A stretch of 63,210 bases of DNA from a virus (lineage: Duplodnaviria > Caudoviricetes), in IMG/VR virus record IMGVR_UViG_3300037502_001755, positions 1 to 63,210 of that record; one strand, written 5' to 3'. The notes beneath the pieces were generated by a model. It did no database searches and was not told the origin of the DNA. It saw only the letters and a program-made list of their open reading frames with translations. Positions 34,657 through 36,320 of the stretch are shown piece after piece (within the stretch, counting starts at the first letter, position 1; every line of letters starts with the position of its first letter). Position numbers and translations under genes: made by a program.

Positions 34657-35586
34657 ATGGCTATTTCTCGCGCACAGCTACTTAAAGAACTCCTGCCCGG
34701 CCTGAACGCGCTGTTTGGTATGGAATACGCCCGTTACGGCGAAGAGCACAAGGAAATCTACGAGACGGAGAAGTCCGAGCGTAGCTTCGAAGAGGAGACC
34801 AAACTCTCCGGCTTCGGCGCTGCCCCGGTCAAGAACGAAGGCTCGGCGATTGCCTATGACAACGCTCAGGAAGCCTTCACCGCTCGCTACACCCACGAGA
34901 CCATCGCTCTGGGCTTCTCGATCACCGAGGAAGCGGTTGAAGACAACCTGTACGACAGCCTGTCTGCTCGCTACACCAAGGCTCTGGCTCGCGCCATGGC
35001 CTACACCAAGCAGGTTAAAGCCGCTTCCGTTCTGAACAACGGTTTCAACGGCTCCTACCCGGGCGGTGACGGTGTTTCGCTGTTTGGCGTGAACTCCAGT
35101 GCTGCCCGCGTGGGTCACCCGCTGGTTGGCGGTGGTCAGAACTACAACAGCCCCACGGTTGCTGTGGACCTGAACGAGACCGCGCTGGAAAACGCGACCA
35201 TTCAGATCGCTGCTTGGACTGACGAGCGCGGCCTGCTGATCGCTGCTAAACCGGTCAAACTGGTGGTTCCCCCGAGCCTGATGTTCACGGCCAAGCGCCT
35301 GCTGGACACCGAACTGCGTGTTGCTACTGCGGATAACGACATCAACGCTATCAAGCAGATGGGCACCATTCCCGGTGGCTTCACCGTCAACCACTTCCTG
35401 ACCGACGTGAACGCTTGGTTCATTTGCACCGACGTTCCCAACGGCATGAAGATGTTTGAGCGTGTGGCTCTGGCTACTTCCATGGACGGTGATTTCGACA
35501 CCGGCAACGTGCGCTACAAGGCCCGCGAGCGTTATTCGTTCGGCTGGTCCGATCCCCTGGGCATGTGGGGTTCTGCTGGCGCTTAA
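34657..35586 (+). CDS. Major capsid protein (HK97 fold)
   Basis: MAISRAQLLKELLPGL; ALGFSITEEAVED; YKARERYSFGW; strong SD and downstream terminator. Confidence 0.9.
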   Translation: MAISRAQLLKELLPGLNALFGMEYARYGEEHKEIYETEKSERSFEEETKLSGFGAAPVKNEGSAIAYDNAQEAFTARYTHETIALGFSITEEAVEDNLYDSLSARYTKALARAMAYTKQVKAASVLNNGFNGSYPGGDGVSLFGVNSSAARVGHPLVGGGQNYNSPTVAVDLNETALENATIQIAAWTDERGLLIAAKPVKLVVPPSLMFTAKRLLDTELRVATADNDINAIKQMGTIPGGFTVNHFLTDVNAWFICTDVPNGMKMFERVALATSMDGDFDTGNVRYKARERYSFGWSDPLGMWGSAGA

Positions 35587-35595
35587 TTGCAGCCT

Positions 35596-35637
35596 GCAAA
35601 AACAGAAAAAGGGGCCTTGTGCCCCTTTTTCTTTTGC
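35596..35637. terminator. Bidirectional intrinsic terminator after MCP
   Basis: AGAAAAAGGGGC-loop-GCCCCTTTTTCT. Confidence 0.85.
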
Positions 35638-35645
35638 TGTATATT
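35617..35645 (+). promoter_or_regulatory. Promoter TTGTGC-17-TATATT overlapping the terminator
   Basis: Hexamers with 17-nt spacer; +1 expected near 35652. Confidence 0.55.
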
Positions 35646-35653
35646 GGTTCTAA

Positions 35654-35723
35654 CTCGGATTTTCCGGGGCGTCAGACTGACCGAGCAGACGACATGCAGA
35701 CGGACGCCCTATAACTCGCATGT
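35654..35723 (+). ncRNA. Candidate double-pseudoknot leader RNA with three CAGAC motifs
   Basis: Interleaved helices 35654-58/35681-85, 35667-73/35703-09, 35692-97/35718-23. Confidence 0.65.
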
Positions 35724-35732
35724 GAGGACATC

Positions 35733-36020
35733 ATGGCCCAAACTCGCTTTACTGGTCCCGTTGTTTCCGACAACGGTTTTGTTGGTTCTGTCACTGGCAA
35801 CGTCACGGGTAACGTGGTTGGCACAGTCACCGGCACCATCATTCTCCCCACCGCTACCGCTGCTAACCTTGGCGCGATTGCTAACGCAATCAACACCACT
35901 GGCAAAGTGACTGGCAAGACGGTTGTGGACATCGCTACGGGCGTGATCTATACCGCTTCTGGCGCAACCGCTGGTTCTGTCTGGTACGGCTCGGACGCGA
36001 CCACCGTCACCCCGTCCTGA
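35733..36020 (+). CDS. Virion structural protein (possible head fibre)
   Basis: TRFTGPVVS.NGF N-terminus; GNVT repeats. Confidence 0.7.
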   Translation: MAQTRFTGPVVSDNGFVGSVTGNVTGNVVGTVTGTIILPTATAANLGAIANAINTTGKVTGKTVVDIATGVIYTASGATAGSVWYGSDATTVTPS

Positions 36021-36032
36021 TAGGAGGCCGAC

Positions 36033-36320
36033 ATGGCCATGCAATACGACGTTAAGGCCGCGTATACGGCGTCTGACGCGGCGATGGTTGCGTACCCGGT
36101 GCGTGTGAAGGGGGCGTATGTCTCCGTTACCACTGGCGGCGCTAACCCTGTTGTCTTGTACGACAACGCTTCTGCTGCGTCCGGAAATGTGCTGCTGCGT
36201 ATTGGCGTGACTGCCGCTGGGTGCCACACGGTGGTGATCCCCGGCGAAGGCATTCGTGCTGACAACGGGGTGTTCTGCGACACGGGTGATGCCGCCGCAG
36301 TCACGATCTTCTATGGCTAA
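36033..36320 (+). CDS. Virion structural protein (possible capsid vertex/spike base)
   Basis: LYDNASAASG...IPGEGI..NGV...TIFYG. Confidence 0.7.
   Translation: MAMQYDVKAAYTASDAAMVAYPVRVKGAYVSVTTGGANPVVLYDNASAASGNVLLRIGVTAAGCHTVVIPGEGIRADNGVFCDTGDAAAVTIFYG

Follow-up and report, generated by a model that had tools for sequence, protein, structure and literature searches.

The S4-binding leader of the Escherichia coli alpha operon is a double pseudoknot, and the S4 and S15 leaders are protein-recognized translational operators that trap the 30S ribosomal subunit. The element of bacteriophage T4 gene 32 is a simple H-type knot with an unstructured A/U-rich stretch before the ribosome-binding site (RBS), and belongs to the gene of an SSB (single-stranded DNA-binding protein). 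Among pseudoknotted riboswitches, SAM-V is known from Pelagibacter and marine metagenomes. To our knowledge, few structured mRNA leaders whose covariation is proven have come from phages, and post-transcriptional control is known for very few of their structural genes. Ribosomal protein S1 is described as unfolding the rpsO pseudoknot (PMC7038950), and the T4 gene 32 pseudoknot RNA as having no Rfam model (PMC10690425). Here, we analyzed the spacer between the major capsid protein gene and the following gene of the virus IMGVR_UViG_3300037502_001755 (a nearly complete virus record of 63,210 bases, referred to as a whole as the window), for which an earlier note, made from the sequence alone, had proposed a pseudoknotted leader RNA. 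As far as the accessible literature and Rfam show, the element is an undescribed structured leader RNA, which comparative data indicate to be real and widespread, and which probably controls the amount of a variable capsid-surface protein that is made. The explanation that best covers the whole, and which we hold with reasonable if measured confidence, is that this RNA forms the complete 5′ leader of its gene, folds as a four-helix double pseudoknot, and acts in cis as a translational operator.

The three helices drawn in the earlier note (P1, P2, and P3, the 5′ and 3′ strands of which are denoted a and b) were read directly from the window sequence at the positions given in Table 1, and their strands interleave in the order that it had claimed, P1a-P2a-P1b-P3a-P2b-P3b. 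P2 can be extended beyond its perfect core to 10 positions, with one G-U pair and one A.G mismatch in the window version, and comprises 8–10 bp in most relatives. These relatives were assembled in two sets. For the freshwater-type set, a capsid-protein search of viral contigs was utilized, from which the best 80 of 600 stretches (79–93% identity; L003–L082) were retained and two phage records (L001 and L002) added, resulting in 82 loci, or 83 sources when the window is included. The marine set of 80 loci came from a second contig search with the capsid protein of Pelagibacter phage HTVC023P. In 64 of the 82 freshwater-type loci, a gene starting MAxTTFxGPV or MGFATHLGPW was preceded by a leader alignable with that of the window. 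Three alignments were built: A1 is a plain MAFFT alignment of 63 distinct leaders, including that of the window, and was not fitted to the structure; A2 was derived from a covariance model of P1 and P3 only (R1); and A3 was derived from a covariance model of P2 alone (R2).

All three helices were supported by covariation. In A1, 85.8% of the cells were paired across the three helices, as compared to 68.5% in column shuffles, none of which reached the observed value in 500 trials, and sliding the partner strand by 1–3 columns left 28–48% paired; moreover, all 18 pairs changed on both sides. In A2, 89.3% of cells were paired overall, and P2, which lies outside the R1 model, was 83.6% paired, with all 10 of its pairs changing on both sides. 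Conversely, in A3, for which only P2 was fitted, pairing reached 97.8% in P1 and 86–92% in P3. We also performed a swap test, for which the two P2-fitted alignments were pooled to give 114 distinct leaders, the 5-mer of P1b and the final five bases of P3a were taken by column, and the exact reverse complement was sought in the 5′ part (for P1b) or the 3′ part (for P3a) of the same leader. Exact complements of P1b were located upstream in 109 of the 114 leaders, with 17 different 5-mers represented, and exact complements of P3a were located downstream in 105, with 22 different 5-mers. When the partners were swapped (200 trials), the mean was 3.0 for P1 (maximum 7) and 3.5 for P3 (maximum 9). 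Finally, P2 contained G-U in 88 and A.C in 10 of its 1129 cells, an excess which indicates that the plus-strand RNA is the folding molecule, with the caveat that the covariance model itself tolerates G-U.

Statistics on the single sequence are less telling. None of 2000 dinucleotide shuffles of the 78-nt stretch produced a double pseudoknot of 18 or more perfect pairs, and seven gave any such topology (three helices of at least 5 bp each); given that a 63-kb genome holds roughly 1600 such windows, this chance test alone is marginal and suggestive only. The nested minimum free energy fold was not unusually stable relative to shuffles (z = −0.58), which weighs against a structured leader in a test that is uninformative for pseudoknots, and this unremarkable fold is what could be expected if the complementarity arose by chance or served as a signal at the level of the DNA, with no RNA structure at all. 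Set against that explanation are the covariation of all four helices (the fourth being described below) relative to several controls, the interleaving of pairings that are impossible in duplex DNA, and the great excess of G-U over A.C, such that we give it hardly any credence. It is the comparative data, and not the single-sequence statistics, that settle the reality of the structure. The proposal of a genuine, conserved pseudoknotted RNA was thus borne out by covariation in the post-capsid spacers of relatives, and we consider the structure almost certainly authentic.

The comparison also exposed a fourth helix, P4, which we add here. It consists of 3 bp that enclose P1b in a 6-nt loop (Table 1). 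Across the 114 leaders its triplets were CTG/CAG in 58, CAG/CTG in 41, CGG/CCG in 5, CCG/CGG in 3, and CCC/GGG in 1, such that 108 of 114 were complementary. In the unfitted A1, every one of the 189 P4 cells was paired, and the middle pair was AU in 29 leaders, UA in 24, CG in 5, and GC in 5. P4 continues P2 across a single invariant A (position 35676). As shown by comparison among the relatives, the plus-strand RNA is therefore best drawn as a four-helix double pseudoknot, in which one long hairpin, P2-A-P4, carries two pseudoknots. Its apical 6-nt loop pairs with the first nucleotides of the predicted transcript (P1), and P3 forms between the tail leading into the Shine-Dalgarno (SD) sequence and the 3′ side of the internal loop (ACG-P3a-AGA).

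The word CAGAC, to which the earlier note had drawn attention, is present at 35673, 35686, and 35697, and each copy straddles a helix junction. The first comprises the end of the P2a core, then an A and a G that are paired in the extended P2, the unpaired A, and the first base of P4a. In the second, the junction AC comes after P4b, while the third comprises the end of P3a, the junction AGA, and the first base of P2b. Recurrence of the words held up in relatives, in the form (A/T)GAC. Their reading as free motifs did not, because two of the three occur since their C.G triplets pair with each other as P4. The unpaired A together with the AC was retained in 110 of the 114 leaders, AGA in 98, and NGA in 112. 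Near-invariance of unpaired junction bases implies a precise tertiary core or a binding partner.

With respect to distribution, R1 gave exactly one match per positive source, always on the plus strand, in 76 of the 83 freshwater-type sources, including the window. Of the seven blanks, three (L046, L049, and L057) end less than 50 nt past the capsid gene, and three others (L034, L053, and L071) extend 400–1,455 nt past it, beginning with another open reading frame (ORF); in L034 and L071 the post-capsid stretch is too short to reach the leader. The seventh, Pag-Yong1 (L001), has enough room after the capsid gene, yet lacks the motif. R1 matched 48 of the 80 marine loci, and R2 matched 42 of 82 sources. 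HTVC023P carries the motif at 30% G+C (55 bits), and Pelagibacter phage HTVC027P has a weaker copy (19.6 bits in an unfiltered search), the helices of which are visible by eye. Among the 32 marine loci with no R1 match, seven have at most 135 nt after the capsid gene and ten contain the downstream gene, as recognized by its N-terminus pattern. Three of these ten (L126, L153, and L155) show the canonical helices by eye, and were missed by R1, one (L133) is a variant, and the six others have shorter leaders. In both sets, all model matches were on the plus strand, with one copy per genome. Judging from these alignments, compensating mutations have preserved the motif in well over a hundred related phages of freshwater and marine origin. 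A quick look with R1 at five whole phage records gave no match and is uninformative, as the same look missed the weak copy of HTVC027P. Additionally, three records (OQ594354.1, OL906435.1, and PP438419.1) have an identical length of 65,014 bp and identical capsid-gene match statistics under three different cyanobacterial hosts, and look like one phage reported three times; their post-capsid spacer does not contain the motif.

Rfam 15 (4227 models, including riboswitches, ribozymes, ribosomal protein leaders, and phage motifs) was searched against window positions 35300–36100, and nothing matched the element at expect values up to 10. The matches in this interval were below threshold and centered on the capsid terminator, the longest ending at 35666, and none reached P2a or beyond. 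Likewise, none was centered on the motif in six diverse members (L083, L084, L002, L035, L060, and L012) at expect values up to 1; the nearest was L20_leader, at 26.7 bits (gathering threshold 58.7), which ends at L083:3984, barely within the modeled span of L083:3976–4075. Hence, both observations that the earlier note had named as fatal to its proposal failed to materialize, in that the element has no match among Rfam families, and homologous spacers retain the helices together with the GAC words. The capsid terminator itself (35604–35632) is preceded by an A run and followed by a T run, a symmetry that leads to its prediction on both strands, and several Rfam small RNA models match it below threshold as terminator look-alikes.

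The leader appears to have its own promoter. Of 73 distinct regions upstream of P1a, nearly all contained a TATAWW-like hexamer (TATATT in 38, TATAAA in 15). Perfect TTGACA was present 16–18 bp upstream of the −10 in ten of the 73, and at least four of six TTGACA matches were present in 25, as compared to 12% of random positions. Relatives with an ORF inserted after the capsid gene have a near-consensus TTGACA-N17-TATAxx ahead of the leader, while in those where the leader directly follows the terminator, the −35 position lies in the terminator loop, with TTGTGC in 18 of the 73, including the window. The partial overlap of promoter and capsid terminator asserted in the earlier note was therefore recovered, the −35-like TTGTGC of the terminator loop being 17 bp from TATATT. 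A stricter consensus promoter scan of the window listed no promoter here at its threshold. The end of the −10 lies 7–11 nt from P1a in 72 of the 73 leaders, from which the RNA is predicted to start 0–4 nt before P1, that is, P1 would begin at about +1 to +4, and the fold would span the entire 5′ untranslated region (UTR) of ~80 nt. Again this agrees with the note, which had the leader RNA run from about the predicted +1 to the SD. Public RNA runs yielded only assembled contigs with small shares of the query. Contigs of relatives in two RNA libraries cover the capsid gene and leader bins, by which neither transcription nor RNA ends are shown.

This promoter placement bears on the possibility that the RNA is a self-cleaving ribozyme or processing element that trims the 5′ region of the mRNA. 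Self-cleaving ribozymes typically have small folds of this double-pseudoknot type, with conserved bases at the junctions, and in about half of the members P1b is followed by CUGACGA, which resembles the hammerhead box, CUGANGA. The resemblance was rejected as a hammerhead box, since the window and about half of the family have CAGAC in this place, which breaks it. Furthermore, no Rfam ribozyme model matches, the cores and helices of the hammerhead, twister, twister-sister, pistol, hatchet, and hepatitis delta virus-like families were not found in the element, no GAAA element follows P3b, and a promoter right at P1 leaves nothing upstream to be cut off. We consider cleavage quite improbable.

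At the other end of the fold, SD geometry was analyzed in the 99 leaders with exact P1 and P3, with the SD core taken as AGGA, GAGG, or GGAG. The core starts inside the 5-nt P3b core in 20 leaders, 0–3 nt after it in 63, and 4–7 nt after it in 16; it starts between 3 nt inside and 3 nt beyond the P3b core in 83. The spacing from SD to ATG is 5–8 nt in 87 of the 99. In many marine members, P3b is CTAGG followed by AG, such that the SD is partly paired. In the window, the SD GAGGA begins at the nucleotide immediately after P3b, as the earlier note had seen, and the ATG lies 9 nt beyond P3. The note had also entertained a small virion RNA, which this geometry does not support: every complete match runs straight into the SD and start codon, with no intervening terminator or processing signal. 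More generally, a trans-acting or packaged small RNA (a virion RNA, a decoy, or a put-type antitermination RNA) that stands before the gene by coincidence would profit from the location directly after a promoter, where cis-acting antitermination RNAs are found, and from a compact, stable-looking fold. However, it is at odds with the constrained spacing from P3 to the SD, the lack of a terminator between fold and ORF, and the constant fusion to the same gene, and we regard it as very improbable.

That gene belongs to one family by position, and every complete match ends in its SD and ATG. Its N-terminus reads MAxTTFxGPV or HLGPW in 107 of the 124 matches from both sets; a further ten have other N-termini that appear related by eye, and seven are truncated or doubtful. 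Specifically, the 76 freshwater-type matches include 60 with the FxGP N-terminus, six with HLGPW, and five with MA(L/V)STTQSIWRSGGG, while the 48 marine matches include 41 with the FxGP N-terminus, two with MATTSFQGIVRS, and two with MAVHFTGPILF. The product is conserved over its first 17–30 residues only, and is variable in sequence and length (75–248 amino acids) beyond. No match to Pfam, PHROG, or PDB sequences was found for the protein. A homolog in DSL-LC04 was deposited as "cement protein", and had only chance-level matches in the PDB. The ESM Atlas returned clusters of viral hypothetical proteins, plus one weak lead to a tail-like trimerization domain (0.91), and AlphaFold2 modeling of a 179-residue homolog from a seven-sequence alignment gave an unusable result (predicted local distance difference test score 37). 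The product is presumed to be a capsid-surface protein (decoration, cement, or fiber), based on its position, the conserved N-terminal "anchor", the variable remainder, and the deposited annotation. Hypervariability of the remainder also fits an exposed capsid-surface or fiber-like protein.

The slot after the capsid terminator is an insertion hot spot, where many relatives carry an extra ORF of 150–250 amino acids (L006, L008, L013, L014, L017, L022, L036, L051, L055, L058, L061, L065, L066, L073, L076, L077, and L081; also L087:3998–5548). These inserted ORFs have a small conserved leader hairpin of their own, with the pseudoknot leader and its promoter retained downstream, where the leader remains joined to its usual gene. 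In Caulobacter phage GB2A, an annotated homing endonuclease occupies the same slot. Within the window ORF, a terminator-like hairpin and T run (35758–35776) are located 25 nt after the start codon. We dropped an attenuator reading of this hairpin, since it is not conserved in relatives, and it is probably fortuitous. A short ORF from an ATG inside P3a (35695–35715; six codons, MQTDAL) was also discarded, as it lacks an SD and is absent wherever the P3a sequence differs; in relatives, longer versions of it show up as spurious ORFs.

In Roseobacter phage CRP-902 (L085:3966–4048) and in five uncultured relatives (L137, L146, L148, L160, and L167, in the 80 nt before the gene), the same gene follows a leader of a shorter type. 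It consists of (C)CCTGAC, a hairpin with a covarying stem, GAC, about 9 nt, a further GAC, and AGGAG. In four of the five distinct sequences, the loop of this hairpin could pair with the bases immediately 5′ of the third GAC. Three GAC words reappear here in another scaffold, along with a pseudoknot beside the SD, which suggests that these constitute the functional core, within a small sample of five distinct leaders. In two further loci (L157 and L165), a CCTTCGGG hairpin is flanked by GAC on either side, which represents yet another short form.

Considering these features together, we propose a cis-acting role for the fold in the expression of the downstream gene, which encodes the presumed capsid-surface protein. 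P1 would bury the 5′ end of the mRNA, and P3 would set the SD flush against a helix beside the conserved junction core, or partly inside it in about a fifth of members, such that ribosome access would depend on the state of the fold. Since P3 ends at or inside the SD beside the core, ribosome binding and the fold should influence each other. The leader would then be a translational operator of the entrapment or occlusion kind, in which a factor recognizes the conserved junction and synthesis of the accessory protein is tuned relative to that of capsids. In this role, a phage protein seems likelier than a metabolite, given that the element serves one gene and is present in a single copy, as are the operators of ribosomal proteins and of T4 gene 32. 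We judge cis-acting control of translation and/or stability of the downstream gene to be likely, while an operator that specifically depends on an effector is a tentative assignment, to which we lend slightly less than even weight. In a more particular and rather doubtful version, the leader would represent an effector-responsive RNA class, in which a three-way junction displays the three GAC words to a phage protein, possibly an oligomeric capsid component, or to a ligand, and translation of the surface protein follows capsid assembly. If true, this would be a capsid-assembly feedback device common to the most abundant of the known pelagiphage groups and its freshwater relatives.

Several points weigh against an operator of this kind. 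P1 forms within a 6-nt loop that is closed by 3 bp, and the coexistence of P1 and P4 is assumed, with fully paired kissing loops as an analogy. The conserved N-terminal ~17–30 residues of the product do not have the arginine-rich character of an RNA-binding peptide, so autoregulation by the product is not obvious. Nor did a candidate binding protein turn up, with no genome search for RNA-binding proteins having been made. In the window, as in most members, P3 does not include the SD itself, hence the folded state may be translatable, and the element could be an enhancer or stabilizer rather than a repressing operator. Lastly, tight spacing from promoter to P1 is something that a 5′-terminal stabilizer would need and an operator does not require.

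The latter two points lead to the possibility of a constitutive, effector-free structure that resembles a 5′ cap, in which P1 blocks decay dependent on the 5′ end and the SD is exposed at a helix end, so that the mRNA would be long-lived and well translated, as befits a protein of which each capsid needs many copies. 5′-terminal stabilizers require pairing near the 5′ end, as in the E. coli ompA leader, and such geometry protects bacterial mRNAs. Here, the distance of 7–11 nt from the −10 to P1a in 72 of 73 leaders would leave at most a few unpaired nucleotides before P1, 79 of 99 leaders have their SD core outside P3, and the gene is behind a strong terminator with its own predicted promoter. 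A simple hairpin would suffice for this purpose, however, and four covarying helices with near-invariant junction bases favor a tertiary core or a partner; moreover, overlap of P3 and SD in 20 of 99 leaders would oppose an enhancer. We view a stabilizer that doubles as an enhancer as unlikely, albeit deserving of serious attention.

An effector could also be a small molecule or ion that binds the three-way junction, stabilizes P3, and reduces or changes ribosome access, which would make the leader a riboswitch. The compact, aptamer-like pseudoknotted fold with invariant junction purines beside the SD would suit this, and conservation of the architecture across phages of Pelagibacter and of freshwater bacteria would fit a universal ligand. 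Known riboswitches usually precede genes for metabolism or transport of their ligand. In contrast, this element occurs once per genome, tied to a single structural gene, and is always upstream of one family from the phage structural region. It matches no Rfam riboswitch family either, and visual inspection of the alignments revealed no conserved alternative (anti-SD) pairing. A local CCGG hairpin between P1a and the beginning of P2a was noticed by eye in the CCGGG class only and was rejected as a feature of the family. We thus consider a riboswitch improbable. In our ranking the effector-dependent operator comes first and the effector-free stabilizer or enhancer second, followed by a riboswitch, a ribozyme, and a trans-acting RNA.

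Table 1. Positions of the leader RNA elements and flanking features in the window
Feature	Position	Strand	Basis
Major capsid protein gene, 309 amino acids	34657..35586	+	ORF; Pfam PF25209 Phage_capsid_4 6.7e-13; PHROG 371 major head protein
Intrinsic terminator of capsid gene: 12-bp stem, 5-nt loop, then T run	35604..35637	+	
Sigma-70-type promoter: −35-like TTGTGC 35617–35622, 17-bp spacer, −10 TATATT 35640–35645	35617..35645	+	
Inferred transcript start	near 35652–35653	+	Promoter spacing
P1 5′ strand, CTCGG, very 5′ end of inferred transcript	35654..35658	+	
L1 linker, variable, mostly U/A-rich; usually 6–8 nt in relatives	35659..35665	+	
P2 5′ strand; perfect core GGGCGTC 35667–35673	35666..35675	+	
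Junction A between P2 and P4; invariant column in MAFFT alignment A1	35676	+	
P4 5′ strand, CTG	35677..35679	+	
P4 loop, 6 nt; CCGAG 35681–35685 is the P1 3′ strand	35680..35685	+	
P4 3′ strand, CAG	35686..35688	+	
Junction ACG; AC invariant	35689..35691	+	
P3 5′ strand, ACATGC	35692..35697	+	
Junction AGA	35698..35700	+	
P2 3′ strand; perfect core GACGCCC 35703–35709	35701..35710	+	
L3 linker; usually 5–7 nt in relatives	35711..35717	+	
P3 3′ strand, GCATGT, adjoins SD	35718..35723	+	
SD GAGGA 35724–35728 and start codon ATG 35733–35735	35724..35735	+	
Gene presumed to be controlled, 95 amino acids; conserved N-terminus MAQTRFTGPVVSDNGF, remainder hypervariable among relatives	35733..36020	+	

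The terminator arrangement after the capsid gene is also seen in relatives of the window. The support that they lend to the leader is unusually clean, coming from more than 100 distinct sequences that include HTVC023P-type pelagiphages. The topology is uncommon, in that both ends of the UTR are tied into one hairpin, and its near-invariant junction bases call for a partner or a precise tertiary fold. As a small, defined RNA, the leader could be used for structural work and for studies on the dosage of capsid-surface proteins. It is also of use in annotation, as a marker for the beginning of a fast-evolving surface gene that goes unrecognized in sequence searches.

Literature searches on HTVC023P, pelagiphages, phage pseudoknots and leaders, and capsid or decoration genes returned no description of the element. 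A term search of the HTVC023P-type genome paper (PMC9599517) found no mention of intergenic, promoter, noncoding, secondary structure, decoration, or homing endonuclease matters. The closest survey, by Fremin et al. 2023, mined the intergenic regions of IMG/VR, a collection that is rich in the present motif, for covarying structures and reported 8,495 unnamed candidates ("DNAVirus_N"), many of them directly upstream of genes, of which only candidates upstream of genes with known domains are highlighted (PMC10690425). Its main text describes no post-capsid motif and no motif before the gene family analyzed here. Part of the motif may be listed, undescribed, among these candidates; it differs from those highlighted in that the downstream gene has no known domain.

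In working principle, the leader comes closest to the pseudoknotted translational operators (S4, S15, and T4 gene 32) and to SD-occluding pseudoknot riboswitches, and it lacks those defining features of each that could be checked. Exoribonuclease-resistant RNAs (xrRNAs) are known from RNA viruses of eukaryotes and have a different topology, while bacterial 5′-terminal stabilizers are simple hairpins. The leader resembles both in that its predicted 5′ end is sequestered in structure, in a compact pseudoknot with conserved junction bases. With the riboswitches that occlude the SD by a pseudoknot (SAM-II/SAM-V, preQ1-II, and guanidine-III) it shares its small size and the placement of a pseudoknot 3′ strand at or over the SD, and it differs from them in having no Rfam match and a nonmetabolic gene context. 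It is likened to T4 gene 32 as a phage leader with a 5′ pseudoknot that regulates, or here would regulate, translation of the next gene. However, it has four helices, its P3 adjoins the SD without a spacer, and the gene is a capsid accessory gene with no SSB domain. Similarity to the leaders of the E. coli alpha operon (S4; Alpha_RBS in Rfam) and rpsO (S15) extends to a pseudoknotted, gene-specific, single-copy leader at the RBS that would act in cis. In those leaders both RBS and start codon are embedded in the pseudoknot, whereas here overlap of the SD with the P3b core is limited to 20 of 99 members and the start codon is outside the fold; additional differences are the lack of an Rfam match, the predicted position of the transcript 5′ end within the knot, and the nature of the gene, which is a phage structural gene. 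Finally, in contrast to the topology of pseudoknot riboswitches, the apical and internal loops of a single hairpin pair here with the 5′ and 3′ flanks, respectively.

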